Shown here: positions 1,151 through 57,232 of the stretch, piece by piece | Position numbering within the stretch: the first letter of the stretch is position 1 | How the letters are laid out: each line of letters begins with the position of its first letter | Source: Mobula hypostoma | Lineage: Eukaryota | Direction of reading: 5' to 3' | Assembly (NCBI RefSeq): GCF_963921235.1 | Contig: NC_086097.1 | Span: 170,068,001-170,132,000 of the forward strand | DNA length: 64,000 nucleotides | Position numbers and translations under genes: made by a program | Notes under the pieces: model-generated | What the model was told of the DNA's origin: nothing | Database searches by the model: none | The model's input: only the letters and a program-made list of their open reading frames with translations

Positions 1151-4100
1151 TTGCAGGGGGATGGGAACCAGAGTGCCAGAGCTGACAGTGTGGCTGGGGT
1201 GAAAATAAATGGTATTGAAAGTTTAAGCAAATCCGCTGATAGAAAGGTTGTGAGTGGTGGTAAAAATCTTCTGAGGTGTATATATTTCAATGCTAGGAGT
1301 ATTGCGGGGAAGGCAGATGAGTTGAGGGCGTGGATTGACACGTGGAATTATGATGTTGTAGCAATTAGTGAAACTTGGCTACAGGAGGGTCAGGACTGGC
1401 AGCTTAATATTCCAGGGTTCCGATGTTTCAGATGTGATCGAGGCAGAGGAATGAAAGGTGGGGGAGTAGCATTGCTTGTTAGGGAAAATATTACAGCAGT
1501 GCTCAGGCAGGACAGATTAGAGGGCTTGTCTACTGAGTCCTTATGGGTGGAGCTGAGAAACAGGAAAGGTATGGCCACATTAGTGGGATTGTATTACAGA
1601 CCACCCAATAGTCAACGAGACTTGGAAGAGCAGATCTGCAGAGAGATAGCAAGCAACTGCAGGAAACATAAAGTTGTGGTGGTAGGGGATTTTAATTTTC
1701 CATACATTGATTGGGACTCCCATACTGTTAGGGGTCTAGATGGTTTAGAGTTTGTAAAATGTGTTCAGGAAAGTTTTCTAAATCAGTATATAGAGGGACC
1801 AACTAGAGGGGATGCAATATTGGATCTCCTGTTAGGAAACGAATTAGGGCAAGTGACAGAAGTCTGTGTAGGGGAGCACTTTGGTTCCAGTGATCATAAC
1901 ACCATTAGTTTCAATTTGATCATGGACAAGGATAGATCTGGTCCTAGGGTTGAGGTTCTGAACTGGAAGAAGGCCAAATTTGAAGAAATGAGAAAGGATC
2001 TAAAAAGCGTGGATTGGGACAGGTTGCTCTCTGGCAAAGATGTGATTGGTAGGTGGGAAGCCTTCAAAGGGGAAATTTTGAGAGTGCAGAGTTTGTATGT
2101 TTCTGTCAGGATTAAAGGCAAATTGAATAGGAATAAGGAACCTTGGTTCTCAAGGGATATTGCAACTCTGATAAAGAAGAAGAGGGAGTTGTATGACATG
2201 TATAGGAAGCAGGGAGTAAATAAGGTGCTTGAGGAGTATAAGAAGTGCAAGAAAATACTTAAGAAAGAAATCAGGAGGGCAAAAAGAAGACATGAGATTG
2301 CCTTGCCAGTCAAAGTGAAGGATAATCCAAAGAGCTTTTACAAGTATATTAAGAGCAAAAGGATTGTAAGGGATAAAATTGGTCCTCTTGAAGATCAGAG
2401 TGGTCGGCTATGTGCGGAACCAAAGGAAATGGGGGAGATCTTAAATACACATCAAAGTTGCTGGTGAACGCAGCAGGCCAAGCAGCATCTGTAGGAAGAG
2501 GTGCAGTCGACGTTTCAGGCCGAGACCCCCGAAGGGTCTCGGCCTGAAACGTCGACTGCACCTCTTCCTACAGATGCTGCTTGGCTTGCTGCGTTCACCA
2601 GCAACTTTGATGTGTGTTGCTTGATTTTCCAGCATCTGCAGAATTCCTGTTGTTTGAGATCTTAAATAGTTTTTTTGTGTCTGTATTTACTAAGGAAGCT
2701 GGTATGAAATCTATGGAATTGAGGAAATCAAGTAGTGAGACCATGGAAACTGTACAGATTGAAAAGGAGGAGGTGCTTGCTGTCTTGAGGAAAATTAAAG
2801 TGGATAAATCCCCGGGACCTGACAGAGTGTTCCCTCGGACCTTGAAGGAGACTAGTGTTGAAATTGCGGGGGCCCTGGCAGAAATATTTAAAATGTCGCC
2901 GTCTACGGATGAAGTGCCGGAGGATTGGAGAGTGGCTCATGTTGTTCCGTTGTTTAAAAAAGGATCGAAAAGTAATCCGGGAAATTATAGGCCAGTGAGT
3001 TTAATGTCAGTAGTAGGTAAGTTATTGGAGGGAGTACTAAGAGACAGAATCTACAAGCATTTGGATAGACAGGGGCTTATTAGGGAGAGTCAACATGGCT
3101 TTGTGCGTGGTAGGTCATATTTGACCAATCTGTTGGAGTTTTTCGAGGAGGTTACCAGGAAAGTGGATGAAGGGAAGGCAGTGGATATTGTCTACATGGA
3201 CTTCAGTAAGGCCTTTGACAAGGTCCCGCATAGGAGGTTAGTTAGGAAAATTCAGTCGCTAGGTATACATGGAGAGGTGGTAAATTGGATTAGACACTGG
3301 CTCGATGGAAGAAGCCAGAGAGTGGTGGTAGAGGATTGCTTCTCTGAGTGGAGGCCTGTGACTAGTGGTGTGCCACAGGGATCAGTGCTGGGTCCATTGT
3401 TATTTGTGATCTATATCAATGATCTGGATGATAATGTGGTAAATTGGATCAGCAAGTTTGCTGATGATACAAAGATTGGAGGTGTAGTAGACAGTGAGGA
3501 AGGTTTTCAGAGCCTGCAGAGGGACTTGGACCAGCTGGAAAAATGGGCTGAAAAATGGCAGATGGAGTTTAATACTGACAAGTGTGAGGCATTGCACGTT
3601 GGAAGGACAAACCAAGGTAGAATATACAGGGTTAATGGTAAGGCACTGAGGAGTGCAGTGGAACAGAGGGATCTGGGAATACAGATACAAAATTCCCTAA
3701 AACTGTCGTCACAGGTAGATAGGGTCGTAAAGAGAGCTTTTGGTACATTGGCCTTTATTAATCCAAGTATTGAGTATAAGAGCTGGAATGTTATGATGAG
3801 GTTGTATAAGGCATTGGTGAGGCTGAATCTGGAGTATTGTGTTCAGTTTTGGTCACCAAATTACAGCAAGGATGTAAATAAGGTTGAAAGAGTGCAGAGA
3901 AGGTTTACAAGGATGTTGCCGGGACTTGAGGAACTCAGTTACAGAGAAAGGTTGAATAGGTTAGGACTTTATTCCCTGGAGCGTAGAAGAATGAGGGGAG
4001 ATTTGATAGAGGTATATAAAATTATGATGAGTATAGATAGAGTGAATGCAAGCAGGCTTTTTCCACTGAGGCAAGGGGAGAAAAAAACCAGAGGACATGG

Positions 4101-4299
4101 GTTAAGGGTGAGGGGGGAAAAGTTTAAAGGGAACATTAGTGGGGGCTTCTTCACACAGAGAGTGGTGGGAGTATGGAATGAGCTGCCAGGAGAGGTGGTA
4201 AATGCGGGTTCTTTTTTAACATTTAAGAATAAATTGGACGGATACATGGATGGGAGGTGTATGGAGGGATATGGTCCGTGTGCAGGTCAGTGGGACTAG
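1151..4299 (+). pseudogene. CR1 ORF2 (APE endonuclease + reverse transcriptase), interrupted by insertion
   Basis: YFNARS, ISETW, GDFN, SDH (APE); PGPD, NYRPVSL, QHGF, DFSKAFD, GVPQGS, FADD (3457-3468). Removing 2447-2667 (insert + one TSD copy) restores one ~975-codon frame. Confidence 0.93.
2447..2655 (+). mobile_element. Palindromic (fold-back) Penelope-like terminal-repeat insertion with truncated hammerhead motifs
   Basis: 82-bp arms 2447-2528/2534-2615 (1 mismatch), 5-nt loop, 40-bp tail; TSD gagatcttaaat at 2435-2446 and 2656-2667. Confidence 0.88.
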
Positions 4300-14570: not shown

Positions 14571-15401
14571 AGGAAAACTCTTGGCTTTACTTGGAATACA
14601 GTCTCACAGGTATGGCACTAAGGGCAAGGTTCTATAGTTTTAACAGTGACTTTTAAATCCATAGGCTAGAATAAATTTGTAAGTCAGCACCATTTTTAGA
14701 AGCAATGGACTGGGGCAGTAATTTAATTAATTTTATTAACTTCCCTGCAACCATTATGAAGGAAGATACAGCTTCAGCATGGTTCCTGGAAGGCTTTTGT
14801 TTTCATGCGCAATGTTGACTTAATTGGTTTGTCAATTAGGATGAAAAAATATCCTGGAGTACAAAGATGAATATGTATGACAACTAATAAGCATCAGTGT
14901 TATATTCAGATATTGCAGGAAAATTGTGCAAAATGATCACCTGCTATGGTGAAAGAGTCTGTAATGTCTTTCTCAGGCAAACCTTATCTCTGTTGTGAGA
15001 CAATAATGAACAAATGTATATAATGTAGTAAATAACAATAACTGCTCAGGTAGATACTACCCCATGATCTGGTTGAATTAAGCAACAGTCTTGATGTGTT
15101 TAATTCTGTTTCCAAAAGAATGTACTCGTTAGAAAGGGAGTGCAGCAAAGATTTCCCATACTCTTCCCTGTGAAGGCAGGTCTGTCATAACAGGGGAGAC
15201 TCAGTAAATTAGGCCTTTAATTCTTAGATAAATATTATGTGGAGATTTGTGACAAATATGATTATATGATATATATGTACAGTATCTGAATTACATCTTA
15301 TGGAAATAACAGGAATTCTGCAGATGCTGGAAATTCAAGCAACATCCATCAAAGTTGCTGGTGAACGCAGCAGGCCAAGCAGCATCTGTAGGAAGAGGTG
15401 C

Positions 15402-15437
15402 AGTCGACGTTTCAGGCCGAGACCCTTCGTCAGGACT
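15402..15437 (-). ncRNA. Minimal type I hammerhead ribozyme motif
   Basis: Reverse complement agtc CTGACGA agggtctcggcct GAAA CGTC gact: stem I agtc/gact, stem II agg/cct, loop-less ACGU stem III, GUC site. Confidence 0.8.
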
Positions 15438-15829
15438 AACTGAAGGAAGAGTGAGTAAGGGATTTGAAAGTTGGAGGGGGAGGGGGAGATCCAAAATGAT
15501 AGGAGAAGACAGGAGGGGGAGGGATAGAGCCGAGAGCTGGACAGGTGATAGGCAAAAGGGGATACGAGAGGATTCTTTCTTTCTTTCTTTCTCTCACTCT
15601 CCTTTTTCTCCCTCTGTCCCTCTGAATATACCTCTTGCCCATCCTCTGGGTCCCCCCCTTCCTTGTCTTTCTTCCCGGACCTCCTGTCCCATGATCCTCT
15701 CGTATCCCCTTTTGCCTATCACCTGTCCAGCTCTCGGCTCTATCCCAACCCCTCCTGTCTTCTCCTATCATTTTGGATCTCTCCCTCCCCCTCCAACTTT
15801 CAAATCCCTTACTCACTCTTCCTTCAGTT

Positions 15830-15865
15830 AGTCCTGACGAAGGGTCTTGGCCTGAAACGTCGACT
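15830..15865 (+). ncRNA. Minimal type I hammerhead ribozyme motif
   Basis: agtc CTGACGA(15834-15840) agggtcttggcct GAAA CGTC gact; predicted cleavage after 15861. Confidence 0.8.
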
Positions 15866-16149
15866 GCACCTCTTCCTACAGATGCTGCTTGGCCTGCTGC
15901 GTTCACCAGCAACTTTGATCTTATGGAAATGTTTGTTTGATGATGAAATTCAATAAAAAATAAATTACAAAAAAAAGAAAAAACATTAGAAGATTGAGAA
16001 TTTGCAGAATGAGTCGCAGACTCATAGAATCATACAACACAGGAACAGGCCTTAGGTCCAAATTGTCTGTGTTGACCAAAGTGCCCAACTAAGCTTGTCC
16101 CATTGGCCTGCTTTTGATCCACATCCCTTTCCTGTCATGTACTTGTCCA

Positions 16150-47140: not shown

Positions 47141-48250
47141 TCACAAAATGCTGGAGAAGGTCTGTGATCAGACAGCATCTATGGAGTTGACTTTTGGGGC
47201 CGAGACCTTTCATCAGGACTGCAAAGGAAGGTGGTAGAAGCTAGAATAAGAAAGTCGGGGGAGGTGAGATATACTGGCCGGTGATTAGATTAGATTAGAT
47301 TATGAGGACACACAGTCCTCGTTTATTGTAATTTAGTATGCATGTGCTAAGAAATGATACAATGTTCCTCCAGTAGATATCACAGAAACACAAGACAGAC
47401 CAAGACTAAAAAACTGACAAAAACCGCATAATTATAACATATAGTTACAACAGTGCAAAACAATACCATAATTTGATAAAGAACAGACCATGGGCATGGT
47501 AAAAAAAAGTCTCAAAGTCTCGAAAGTCCCATCAGCTCACGCAGACGGTAGAAGTAGGAAGAAAACTCTCCCTGCCATGAACCTCCAGCGCCACAAACTT
47601 GCTGATGCAGCACCCTGGTAGCACCCGACCACAACCGACTCTTGAGTCCGTCCGAAAACTTCGAGCCTCCGACACCGAGCACCGAGCACCATCTCCGCTA
47701 AGCGCTTCGACCCCAGCCCTGGCCGCCAGCAACAGGCAAGGCCGAGGATTTGGGCCTTCCCCTCCGGAGATTCTCAATCGCACAGTAGCAGCCGCAGCGA
47801 AGAAGGCATTTCAGAAGTTTCTCCAGATGTTCCTCCGTGCTCTCACGTCTGTCTCCATCAAATCAGGATTGTGCACGGCATCCTACTTGACAGATACCGA
47901 TATCATTCACCGGACAGGCCGCGCACACTGCATTGCGCCGCCATCTTCTCCTCCCTGCCTCCCTGATATGTGAGACCAATTAGATTCTTTCTTTAGTTTT
48001 TTACTTCTACATATCACCTCCCAGCTCTTCACATCATCCCCGCCTTTCCCACCCATCTTCCTCTTCACTGGTCTCCCCTATCACCTGCCAGCTTGCACTC
48101 CTCCTCCATTCCCTACGTTCTTATTTGGACTTCTGCCCGCTTCATTTAGTTCTGATGAAGGTCTCAGCCTGAAACGTTGGTAGTTTATCTTCCTCCATGG
48201 ATACTGACCGGCTTGCTGAATTCTGCCACTATTTTGTGTGCGTTACTCAA
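47141..48250. mobile_element. PLE fold-back with degenerate HHR on each strand, interrupted by 47286-47963; follows a V-SINE head (47030-47135)
   Basis: Minus HHR-like 47186-47221; plus CTGATGAaggtctcagcctGAAACGTT 48152-48178. Confidence 0.75.
47286..47963 (-). mobile_element. Non-autonomous retroposon with GC-rich head and (tctaa)n tail
   Basis: Minus-strand 5' gggaggagAAGATGGCGgcg, CpG-rich body, aataaa then (tctaa)n; tgat TSD at 47282-47285 and 47964-47967. Confidence 0.7.
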
Positions 48251-49762: not shown

Positions 49763-51958
49763 CTCTCTCTTTCTCTAACTTTCTCTCTCTCTCACTTTAT
49801 GACCACATACTTTATAACTTTACGCCCATTTTCTCTTTGATCTTACACTCTCATGCTAATCACCAATTTCCTAAGTGATCTTACTTCAAAAATGCATTCC
49901 ATGTTTTATTTATTACAGACCCTTTTTCATTTTCTATTGAGACATTATATCTTTGTTATGTTTTGAAGGCTGAATTATTCCTGGAATATGGACCCCCATG
50001 TGTCTTTCACAAGTCATTTGCTTCAATAACGCATTTATCTGTATGTTTCAACCTTATCTTTCTCGTTATCATTCAGAGTACTGTGCCTACTTTACTCGTT
50101 TCGAACACTATTTGCCCCTTTGTTGGTAGAATCCAAATCGGACAAGAATTCAGCAGGCCAGATAGCATCTATGAAAATGGATAAACAATGACGCTTCAGG
50201 CTGAGACCCTTCTTCAGGACCGGAAAGAAAGGGGGAAGAAGCTAGAATAGCAAGGTGAGGGGAAGGATGGCAGGCCTGAAAGTGATAGGTGAAGCCAAGT
50301 GTGGGACAAAGGGAGATGAAATAAGAATTTGGGAGGTGAAAAGGTAAAAGACTGGAGAAAAAGGAATCTGATAGGAGAGGAGAGTGAATCATGGGAGAAA
50401 GGGAAGGAGAAGGGGCACCAGGTGAAGGTCAGAGGGAGGTGAGAAGAAGAGTTAGGAAGCCAGAGTGGGGAACTGAAGAGGGAAGGGAAAGGAAAGAAAT
50501 TAGCGAAAGTTGGAGAAATCGATGTTCATGCCATTAGGTTGGATGCTATAGACAGAATGTGAGATGTTGCTCTACCAGCCTGAGTGTGACTTCATCATGG
50601 CAGAAAAGGAGGCCATGGACTGACGTGTCGGGACTGGAATAGGGTAGGAATTGAAATGGTTGGCTAATGGGGAATTCATCTTTTTGCAGATGGAGCTGAG
50701 GGACTTGACAAAGCATCTTCTCAATCAACATTGGGTCTCACCAATGTAGAGGAGGCCACAACAGGAGTACCGGGTACAGTAGACAACCCCAGCAGATTTG
50801 CAGGTGAAGTGTTGCTTTCTCAGGGTGACTGTTTGGGGCCCTGACTGGAGGTGAGGGACATGGTGTCAAGATAGCTGTGGGAATCAGTGGTTTTATTAAA
50901 AAAAACAGTAGACAGCTTGGATCCAGTGATGGAGACAGAGAGATTGAGAAGGGGGACGAAGGTGTCAGAAATGGCCTAGATGAATTTAAGGGGAAGGTGG
51001 AAGTTGGAGGCAAAGTTGATGAAATTGATGAGCTCATCATGGGTGCAGGAAGCAGCACAAATGCACAAAAAGAGTGTAGCGCAGAAAGAGTTAGGGAGCA
51101 TTACTAGGAAAGGCTTGGACCATGGATGTTCTATATAGCCAATGAAAAGGCTGGCATAGCCAGTGCCCATGGCTACACTTTGAGTTTGCCAATGAAAAGG
51201 CAGACATAACTGAGGCCAGTGCTCATCGACTCTTTCTGCATTACATTGACGACTGTATTGGTGCTGCTTTATGCACCCATGGTGAGCTCGTCAATTTCAT
51301 CAACTTTGCCTCCAAGTTGCACCTTGCCCTTGAATTCACTTCGTCCATTTCTGGCACAGCTCTTTTCCCTTTCTCAATATGTTTGACAAACTGTCTACTG
51401 GTATCTTTTATAAACCCAATGATTCCCATGGCTCCCTTGACTATAACTCTTCCCACGCTGTCTCATGTAAAAATGCCATTCTCTTTTCTCAGTTCCTTTG
51501 TCTCCACCACGTCTGTTCCTAGGCTGAGGATTTCCTTTCCAGAGCATCAGAGATGACCTCCTTCTTCAAAGAATGGGGTTTCCCTTCCTTCACCATTGAT
51601 GCTGCCCTCACTGCATCTTTTCCATTTCCTAGTCATCTGTGCTCACCCCATCTTCCTGTCACCTTAAAAGGGATAGAGCTCCTCTTGTCCTCACCTACCA
51701 CCCCATGAGCCTTTGCATCCAAAACAAAGTTTGCCATCGGCAAAGGGACACTACCACCAAACACATCTTTACCTCCGCCCACTCTCTGCCTTCTGCAGGG
51801 ATCCTTTCCTCCATGATTCCCTTGTTCATTCATCAATCCCCACTAATACCCCTCTTGGCACTTATTCCTGCGAGTGGAAGTGCCCATTAATCTCTTCCCT
51901 CACCATTCAGGTCCCTAAACATTCCTTCCAGGTGAGGTAACACTTCAAATGTAAATCT

Positions 51959-53945: not shown

Positions 53946-56627
53946 ATATCCCAATTCCTGTTCTGTCATGTCAGTCCATGACCTCTTCTTCTGCCATGAG
54001 GAAGCCACTCTCAGGTTGGAGGAGAAATGCCTCATATTTTGTTTGGGTAGCCTCCAACCTGATGGTACGAACATCAATTTGTCCAACTTATAGTAATTTT
54101 TCCCTTTCCCCTTTCCTCTTCATATCCCCACTATGGCCTCTTAACGCTTCTGCTGCCTATGACCACCCCCTTGGGCCCCTCCTCCTTCCCTTTTTCCCAT
54201 GATCCAGTCTCCTCTCCAATCAGATTCCGTCATTTCCATCCCTTTGCTTTTTCCACTTATCAGCTCCCAGCTTTTTACCTTATACCCCCTCCCCATCCAC
54301 TTGGCTTCAACTATCACCTTCCAGCTTGTCCTCCTCCCTTCCCCTCACCGATTTATTCTAGCTTCTTCTCCTTTCCTTTCCAGTCCCAATGAAGTGTCTT
54401 GGCCCAAAATGTCGACTCTTTATTTATTGACATAGATGCTGTCAGAACTGTTGAGTTTCTCCAGAATTTTTGTGCATTGCTCTGGATTTCCAGCATCTGC
54501 AGGATCTCTTGTGTTTAGAATCAGAATCAGGATTATTATAATTGTTATATGTTGTGAAATTTGTTGTTTTGCAGCAACAGTACAGTGCAAGACAGAAAAA
54601 TGGTCCCTTCAGTCTGCCGTGTGCCTGCTGACTTTTTTACCTATCTATACTAACTCTGTTTTTCCTAAATTAGGTCTGTATCCTTCTGTACCTTGCCCAA
54701 TTAAGTACCTGTATAAATATCATAGTGTCATAACAGCACCGAAACAAACCCTTTGGTTTGCCTTTACCTCTTTCTCTGGAATTTCATTCCACATAGAAAC
54801 CACACTTCATGTGAAAAAGTTGTTCCTCATGTTCCTATTAAATATTTTCCCTCTCACATTGAACTTATTCCCTTTAGTTGATTCCCCAACCTCGGAAGAA
54901 AGACAGCGTGCATTCATCCTGTTTATGCCTCTCACAATTTTATACACATCTGTAAGTTTGCCTCTCAGTCTCAGACACTCCAAGGAATAAAGAATTAACC
55001 TCTCCAATCTCTCCATCTAAATCAGTCTCTCAAGTCTTGGCAACATCCTTGTAAGTTCTTTTTGCACTCTTTCCTAGATTAATAATAATATACAAATAGT
55101 ATGCATAGTGATTGTGTCTGATTCCACCACCTCCTCTGATTTCACATTGCAGATATCAGCCACTCTGTGCAAAAAAAACTTTCCCCTCAGAACTCGTTTT
55201 AAACTTCCCTTACCTTAAACCAATGCCCTTTTGTTTTTGATGCCTCATGCATGGGAAAAGCATTTTACCCTCTACCTTATCGATGCTTCTTATATATACT
55301 TCCATCAGGTCATCCCTCAGCCTCCTTCGCTCCATGTATCCAATCTCCCCCCATGACTGAAGTCCTCCAATCTAGGCAATATTCTGCATTCTCTTCAGCC
55401 CAATAACATCCTGCCAAGAGTATGGCAATCAGAACTGTGCATTTGGTTGGCAGGTCAATTGCCCATTGGAAATAACTCCCAGTGTGAGTGGGGAACCTGA
55501 TTAAAGTCTAAGTTGACTTTTATTATCAAGTCACTTCACTTGCACCTTTGCTCCAAATATAGCACACTAGCTTGTTCAACTTTTCCTCATACGACATGCT
55601 CTCTAATCTGGACAGCATCTGGTGAATCGCCTTTGCACCTTCTGTAAAGCTTGCACATCCTTCCCGTAATGAGACAACTAGATTTGAACTCAACATGACA
55701 CGTGTGGTTTAACCAAAGCTTTACAGAACTGCAACAATATGCTCCATCTACTACCACCCATTGCCTTTTGGCTCTTGAACTCAATCCTCTGACTAATGAA
55801 GGCAACTCACCATACGTCTTCTTAACCACCCTATCCATTTGCACGGCCACTTGGAGGGATCTATGGATATAGATCCCAAATTCCCTCAGTTTAATCCACA
55901 CTGCTGAGAATCCTGCCACTAACCTTGTACTCTGCCTTCAAATTTGACTTTCTAAAGTGTCTTACTTGGAGTGTTTGGTGTCAAGCCGAACCTCCTTAAC
56001 CTTCTACGAAAGTAAAGATCTGGCATGCCTTCGTTGTGATTGTGTTTATGTGCTGACCCCAAGATGGGTCAACTGATACGTTTTTGCCCAATAATTTACA
56101 GCTACTGACTTTCTCCACCACCAGTCCACTAATGTATTGATGGGAATGTGGAGATGGTAGAAAGGGAATTAGTGCCAAACACATCTAATTTGACAACTAA
56201 TAAAGTAAGTGTTAGTTGGTGTGGACCCAAACTCTATTAAGCTTATTAAACCGATGGAAATACAGCTGAAAAAAAATCAATTACAGGAAGACGAAAGGAT
56301 GGCAAAGTGGTTGTAAATTTAGCATTCCTTTAGAGCTTAGAGTTGTATTTTAGGTGATTCTTTTAGTGTGTACCAGTGGATCACAATTTACATGGTTGAA
56401 AGGATTTCTTATTCTTCACTGGTTCTAGAATATAAAAGTCAAAGTCATGTTTGTTGTCATTTGCACAAATACATTTATGCACAATGCCATAAAAACTTAC
56501 ATGCAGCAACATCACAGGCATAGAGCACCAGAGACAGAACTTCAGCATCTCAATGCCCACAGTTTCTTTCCGCTACAGATGATCAACTAACTGAAGGGAT
56601 TCTCAGCTCATTTTGATTTAGCTTTAT

Positions 56628-57232
56628 AAATGCTGGAGGAACTCATCTGGTCAGGCAGCATCTATGGAGGGGAATGAACAGTCAATGTTGCTGTCTAAGA
56701 CCCATCACCAGGACTGGAAAGAATTAGCCTGAAATGTCGACTGTTTATTCTCTACAGATGCTGCTTGACCTGCTGAGGGTTGAGGGAGGGTGTTAGGAGT
56801 TTGATGTTTCTATCGCTGTTTTTTTTGAGTGAGGGGTTAGGGGTTGGTGTTTGGGGATTGGGGTTTCTGATGTCCTGTCTTAGCTTTTTCCATGTAGGTG
56901 GTCTGTTGGTTTTTGTGTAAGGGAAGGGTTGGAGTGTTTTGGGGTTTAGTGTTCCAGCTGCCGTTTCCGTATGGGCGATGTGTTAGTTTTTTATGTGAAG
57001 GAGGGGTGAGGGGGGATTTGCAAATTTGTTTCTTTTTCCTTTTCATGTGGGTGGGGGGTGGACGGTTGAGTCTTTTCTTTCAACGACTCCTGTGTTTTTT
57101 CATGGCTGTCTGGAGAAGACAAGTATCAGAGTTGTGATGTATGTGTATACTTTGACAATAAAATGAACCTAGGAATTCCTCCAGCATTTTGTGTGTATTG
57201 CTCAAGTTTTCCAGCATCTTCAGAATCTCTTG
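56628..57232. mobile_element. PLE fold-back interrupted by a retroposon 3' end (56778-57170)
   Basis: aatgctggaggaactcatctggtcaggcagcatctatgg...gcctgaaatgtcgactg...; right arm resumes ttcctccagcattttgtgtg at ~57175. Confidence 0.72.

Follow-up and report, generated by a model that had tools for sequence, protein, structure and literature searches.

A fold-back insertion in the Mobula hypostoma genome

The stretch analysed here (64,000 nt of Mobula hypostoma contig NC_086097.1, hereafter the window, to which all coordinates refer) contains at 15308-15917 a 610-bp non-coding unit flanked by a 13-bp direct repeat. As the initial annotation had described, the unit carries near-perfect inverted arms of 226 nt each (15348-15573 and 15694-15919), which are 98% complementary with 4 mismatches and stand 120 nt apart. 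The final 2 nt of the right arm (15918-15919) are also part of the flanking repeat. This repeat, ATCTTATGGAAAT, is identical at 13/13 positions between its copies at 15295-15307 and 15918-15930. The unit sits in another high-copy repeat, whose empty form with a single copy of the 13-mer is found in contigs from DNA runs (loose ends at 15307). Since the uninterrupted target has one copy, the 13-mer is a genuine target-site duplication (TSD), as had been claimed. In the window, the target (15226-15307 and 15931-15975) is the 3' end of that repeat, with an AATAAA and an A-rich tail.

The features are as follows, with family positions counted back from the end of the tail of the parent Penelope-like element (PLE; negative numbers are upstream):

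2448..2655, no strand assigned: a further fold-back insertion from the same family, independent of the focal one, with its junction within the hammerhead (-121/-125) and a 13-bp TSD (2435-2447 and 2656-2668)
15295..15307, plus: left copy of the TSD, 13 bp, empty target form seen
15308..15347, minus: one-sided PLE tail, family about -4 to -43, with the ORF ATG at 15345 (minus) and the first 12 codons
15348..15573, minus: left arm, a 5'-truncated 3'UTR/pLTR copy reaching family -269
15402..15437, minus: minimal type I hammerhead motif of the left arm, predicted cut after the C at 15406
15574..15584, plus: head-to-head junction with about 11 extra bases (CTTT stutter) and a possible 3-nt ATT microhomology, unique in the genome
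15585..15693, plus: the "loop", family 3'UTR -380 to -270, present on the longer arm only
15694..15917, plus: right arm, without a tail; it stops at about family -45 and shares 2 nt of homology with the TSD
15815..15845, plus: predicted local hairpin pairing with the hammerhead core, coinciding with the 5'-truncation hot spot of the family
15830..15865, plus: minimal type I hammerhead motif of the right arm, predicted cut after the C at 15861
15918..15930, plus: right copy of the TSD

The left arm thus corresponds to family positions -269 to -4 and the right arm to -380 to about -45. The 120-nt spacing reported earlier is correct, but its nature is not that of a simple loop: it consists of family 3'UTR carried by one arm only and a short CTTT stutter at the junction. 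The one-sided 40-nt tail at 15308-15347, which includes the first 12 codons of the family ORF, had been overlooked. The unit is non-coding because both copies are truncated before the end of the ORF. A transcript of the full unit is predicted to fold into the rod that had been proposed (-497 kcal/mol, z -47). The second hairpin of the window splits a LINE reverse transcriptase (RT) frame (1124-2467 and 2611-4299) that is presumably CR1-like.

Such a layout could in principle arise from two separate insertions, the second inside the first, or from faulty assembly. PLEs can nick their own pLTR (PMC11167929), and no short-read contig spans the junctions, which proves nothing either way. A single TSD surrounds the whole unit with no internal duplication, the two arms have 13/13 diagnostic alleles in common and differ at 4 sites, and the same layout recurs at 56 of 100 sampled family ends (see below), so that nesting or misassembly is extremely improbable.

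The parent family and its hammerhead motifs

By sequence comparison, the arms are 5'-truncated 3' ends (3'UTR/pLTR) of an autonomous EN+ PLE. The PLE origin suggested earlier is supported by their match to the 3'UTR/pLTR of a family with intact ORFs encoding RT and a GIY-YIG endonuclease. Searched against the 3.48-Gb genome, a 24-mer from the tail gives 38,265 exact matches, and longer copies run on into RT and GIY-YIG coding sequence. Three of 11 candidate full-length loci (L227, L230, and L231) have an ATG-started ORF of 1042 aa, and three more are open for 1004-1043 codons. In 10 of the 11 fetched loci, hammerheads about 3.5 kb apart flank the ORF, and the upstream pLTR varies in length (a partial tandem). 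One full ORF (L158) lies behind a pLTR that begins at the hammerhead core and measures just 128 nt.

The single ORF begins inside the tail and combines an RT (YIDD) with a C-terminal GIY-YIG endonuclease (GVIY..YIG); the Pfam matches to RVT_1 (E 3.4e-5) and GIY-YIG (E 1.1e-3) both fall under the gathering cut-offs. Between GIY and YIG, the segment GVIYCVRCSRCGLLYIG supplies the two cysteines of a CCHH motif, the feature by which EN+ PLEs are defined in PMC8557442. Between RT and endonuclease, CKRNKCYTC conforms to the CX2-5CxxC pattern of Neptune/Nematis-type elements, a motif-based assignment. Older PLE relatives are also scattered through the window at 48140-48200, 51146-51556, 54382-54505, and 56724-56775, as a diverged hammerhead, a YIDD RT fragment, and pLTR/tail remnants.

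The claim of a hammerhead core on each strand is confirmed at the sequence level. The plus core at 15830-15865 contains CUGACGA (15834-15840), GAAA (15854-15857), and GUC (15859-15861), and the minus core is its mirror copy, with CUGACGA starting at 15433. The motif is situated about 130 nt from the 3' end of the element and is therefore included in any longer arm, which is the sole reason for a hammerhead on each arm. Its assignment as a minimal type I hammerhead is likewise supported, as the CUGANGA core, GAAA, UH, stems I and II, and a palindromic 15.2-16.2 are all present, a dimer being needed for stem III. Stem II exists as annotated, but it is closed by a G-U pair after a bulged A instead of the usual G-C; a G-C-closed variant occurs in 10/128 motif matches. 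Metazoan PLE hammerheads described in PMC4209133 share the 4-5-bp stem I, the extra base after A9, the missing stem III loop, and the palindromic 15.2-16.2, and they too occur as opposite-strand pairs 100-700 bp apart; in most copies here, stem II differs from theirs in its G-U closure. A 34-nt hammerhead pattern has 48,191 matches genome-wide, compared with about 9,000 copies in Xenopus tropicalis (PMC4209133), the two figures coming from different search methods. The covariance-model search of Rfam suggested by the initial annotation gave no hammerhead match for the motif, either at the gathering score or among the 21 matches at E<=10, which would be unsurprising for a motif that lacks a stem III loop.

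Minimal PLE hammerheads are described as cleaving weakly and only as dimers (PMC4209133), or more broadly as cleaving weakly or only with protein (PMC4209133; PMC11167929), and the cleavage sites of the focal unit are predicted sites only. In a 45-nt fragment, stems I and II are predicted with P about 0.98. The probability of the hammerhead fold drops below 0.01 in a single arm, where a local hairpin pairs with the core, and hammerhead pairing in the full unit has a probability of about 0. The fold is predicted to return (P about 0.7) if the RNA starts downstream of about -140 and ends at the tail; with 130 nt of ORF included, P is 0.2-0.35. The earlier proposal that the upstream arm would sequester the ribozyme therefore holds as a prediction for the read-through rod, but the antisense arm is not required, since in a single arm the local hairpin is enough to prevent the ribozyme fold.

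The same hairpin marks a preferred end point of family copies. Of 156 mapped 5' ends, 60 fall at -150 to -121 (15813-15842 in the window), on the hairpin that overlaps the hammerhead core. Only 7/156 lie at -105 to -98, near the cut site, a weak and post hoc excess, and hammerhead cleavage was thus rejected as the main source of 5' ends. The peak could reflect a transcription start, an RT stop, or trimming at the hairpin. The -150 to -121 stretch contains TCACT and TCAGTT, which may be initiator-like words.

Inverted insertions across the family

To what extent the focal unit is typical can be judged from a census of the first 100 exact tail matches on one contig (C1, 0-6 Mb). Local alignment finds an adjacent inverted arm at 56 of these ends, and 6 further ends with an inverted arm seen by BLAST only were excluded from the counts. 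A TSD of 12-17 bp flanks 50/56 hairpins, and 22/56 have the hammerhead span on both arms. If the same 56% applied to all 38,265 tail matches, hairpins of this kind would number 20,000 or more genome-wide. The junctions of the 56 sampled hairpins are nearly all different (23 with overlap, 7 blunt, and 26 with an insert). Short tandem re-copies, like the CTTT stutter of the focal unit, are found at the junctions of L063, L008, L020, and L219 (units of 33-99 nt), which suggests repeated template jumps. Two short copies, L057 and L100, have a common left flank and 5' junction and differ on the right, with a TSD only in L057.

The initial annotation had raised the possibility that the hairpin is a non-autonomous mobile RNA resembling a retrozyme or viroid, one whose transcript would be processed by the hammerheads and then re-inserted whole. 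The hairpin does retain the tail with the expected RT start, and its predicted rod is stable. A replicating unit would share its junction between copies with different TSDs, yet the 19-mer across the focal junction has 1 match in 3.48 Gb, the focal unit itself. A gapped version of the junction pattern returns 12 matches, namely the focal unit, 5 singletons with TSDs of their own, and 6 copies of one other insertion. The latter (L002-L007, on contigs C116, C151, C171, and C192) were rejected as siblings, as their junction is different and their flanks are shared (94-100% over about 3 kb); they represent one older hairpin insertion that now exists, together with 3 kb of flank, in at least 6 copies, probably as part of a tandem or segmental repeat. 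The closest singleton, L215, has nearly the same junction and was also rejected, as it carries other subfamily alleles on both arms. Near-junction relatives are thus independent insertions, and hairpins with junctions of their own are the usual product of the family. Two further distinctive junctions from the census, searched genome-wide, are each unique.

Recurrent junctions do occur. One type (-131/-110) is found 193 times, which could point to a mini-family, but in the 30 loci examined the tail lies on either arm and the subfamily alleles vary, as expected of a hot spot. Two other hairpins come as junction-sharing pairs with different flanks. L182 and L184 (contig C1, 3.84 and 5.74 Mb) are 99% identical over 200 nt, with one rare variant in common and separate TSDs, and L062 and L077 (contig C1, 0.40 and 1.82 Mb) share a junction as well. 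Each pair consists of just 2 copies genome-wide, in opposite orientation and 1.9 Mb (L182/L184) or 1.4 Mb (L062/L077) apart. Random re-insertion would leave many copies beyond the 6-Mb sample and none were found, so local copying by ectopic gene conversion is the most likely origin of both pairs, with retro-copying of the whole hairpin as a possible alternative. The L061/L062 unit has tails at both ends and no TSD, and 6 of its private variants are common with L077, compared with 4-5 for unrelated copies. These cases run counter to a strictly one-off reading, as junctions are sometimes copied.

The mobile-RNA proposal also fits poorly with the near-zero hammerhead pairing predicted for the full unit and with the sequence of the arms: no A-to-G editing scar is visible there, the focal unit having 0 such changes, and in the census the counts are 13 vs 15 among 159 private changes. 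Non-LTR retrozymes are, like the focal unit, non-coding, derived from PLE pLTRs, and equipped with type I hammerheads, but as presented in bioRxiv 10.64898/2026.07.22.740005 their defining feature is an arrangement in tandem direct repeats, and they are amplified as families, whereas the focal unit is inverted and has a single-copy junction. On this evidence, propagation of the focal hairpin as a mobile RNA is highly improbable.

The two arms of an insertion are closely related. They agree at 382/440 diagnostic cells (87%), compared with 52% after shuffling, and at 257/291 once 8 CpG or homopolymer sites are removed. This mostly rejects an origin of the arms from two unrelated RNAs, although 5/16 long arm pairs agree at only 0.67-0.78. 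The match fits one RNA or one source locus, but the same pattern would be expected from a master element that dominated when the insertions formed, or from conversion between the arms afterwards.

The ends are equally regular. Exactly one end is tailed in 40/40 inverted insertions, which had been chosen by junction or similarity and not by tail. Across 52 TSD-flanked cases, the tailed end lies at -4 to +10 and the other end mostly at -30 to -45 (46/52), and mean homology to the TSD is 0.9 nt at the tailed and 1.6 nt at the tail-less end. The arm that reaches further 5' is the tail-less one in 25 cases, the tailed one in 21, and neither in 6.

A probable by-product of PLE integration

The focal unit is best explained, with a probability of about 0.88, as a unique TSD-flanked head-to-head insertion of two 5'-truncated PLE 3' ends, which likely arose in one event and has likely been immobile since. 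It is most likely a dead-end by-product of PLE integration rather than a viroid-like mobile RNA. The mechanism, as read from genomic products, would begin with the GIY-YIG domain nicking both target strands about 13 nt apart, after which each target 3' end would prime reverse transcription of element RNA. One reaction would start at the end of the tail (-4) and the other about 40 nt upstream (-45). Both cDNAs would stop early (at -269 and -380) and be joined after a short CTTT stutter, and repair would duplicate the 13 bp.

The 25 longer tail-less arms, together with the two-strand, two-site behaviour of PAc, an anole PLE, lead us to propose that both nicks prime cDNA synthesis, that synthesis stops early, and that the ends are then joined. 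PAc is reported to cut and extend both strands, to start RT at two sites bounding the tail, and to be predicted to dimerise (PMC11167929). Like the Mobula family, this Anolis Poseidon element has two end positions that bound a tail near the ORF start, AT-rich targets, and a hammerhead upstream of the tail; it differs in that the ORF starts in stem II instead of at the tail, and the linker CX4CxxC motif found here is absent from Penelope/Poseidon.

An alternative source of the second arm is self-priming, or a template switch onto antisense RNA or cDNA, in place of a second target-primed reaction. Self-priming on an antisense template has been proposed (PMC3846280), the tail-less end is spread over -30 to -45, its 1.6 nt of mean TSD homology resembling a joining end, the arms share alleles, and 5' ends cluster on an imperfect palindrome. 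However, a tail-less arm that outreaches the tailed one, as in 25/52 insertions including the focal unit, cannot be made by folding back on the first cDNA, which is too short to be its template. Nor would a joining end be expected to stop so often within 15 nt, and that position resembles the second RT start site in PMC11167929. Self-priming or template switching is accordingly rather unlikely, and target priming at both nicks is preferred.

In L1 elements, inversions by twin priming likewise involve two target nicks that both prime cDNA, with the products joined at microhomology, as proposed for the focal unit. The two L1 pieces derive from non-overlapping parts of the RNA, whereas the focal arms both cover the same 3' end and so form a hairpin.

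In vitro, the start sites of PAc show no strand difference (PMC11167929), so that a strict one-tail rule would need a coupling. We tentatively suggest an asymmetric complex in which two RT subunits share one RNA, each starting at a fixed site for its own nick with about 37 nt between the sites, so that exactly one tail and matching alleles would result. Short arms would then be run-off products from a transcription start at the front edge of the hammerhead, and the local hairpin might act as a switch that blocks the ribozyme in pLTR read-through RNA and releases it in RNAs that begin downstream of about -140. This fuller scheme is possible but doubtful.

Inverted truncated copies with a one-sided tail and a TSD are standard for EN+ PLEs (PMC8557442; PMC3846280; PMC8969392), the tail being given as 30-40 bp (PMC8557442; PMC3846280), and the focal unit shows this same inverted 5'-truncated copy with a tail at one end only. 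Among the closest described cases is Pen2a_Av of Adineta (PMC3846280; legend to Fig. 2 of PMC8557442), which shares head-to-head 5'-truncated copies, a one-sided 30-40-bp tail including the ORF start, a TSD around the unit, and a pLTR hammerhead. In contrast to Pen2a_Av, both focal copies are truncated before the end of the ORF and hence non-coding, and TSDs here measure 12-17 bp instead of the 8-10 bp of the Adineta examples.

Whether the insertion now serves as a source of dsRNA or siRNA that dampens its parent family, as also envisaged at the outset, is a separate question. Read-through RNA would form a predicted 224-bp duplex, and in transgenic Drosophila siRNAs have been mapped to Penelope regions that are inverted (PMC3681739). 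Against such a role, no promoter or host transcript was identified at the locus, the arms show no editing scar, and a special function is improbable for 1 of an estimated 20,000 or more like hairpins. Contigs from runs guessed to be RNA contain family sequence with none spanning the focal locus, which is evidence neither way. Silencing by this insertion is thus unlikely.

Publications already describe inverted pLTRs and one-sided tails, and likewise hammerhead pairs on opposite strands and siRNA derived from inverted Penelope copies. Our literature search found no statement of a strict one-tail rule or of the 5'-end peak, though Arkhipova 2006, Evgen'ev and Arkhipova 2005, and supplements may hold them. 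Tens of thousands of such stumps belong to this known class, so the focal locus alone matters little; the lasting value lies in the family statistics. Tandem and inverted PLE products have been described as mechanistically undefined (PMC8557442), and the family provides a good natural record of PLE integration. The one-tail rule (40/40), the tight TSD length, the allele match between arms, and the 5'-end peak are numbers for an in vitro system to reproduce, for which intact ORFs exist.
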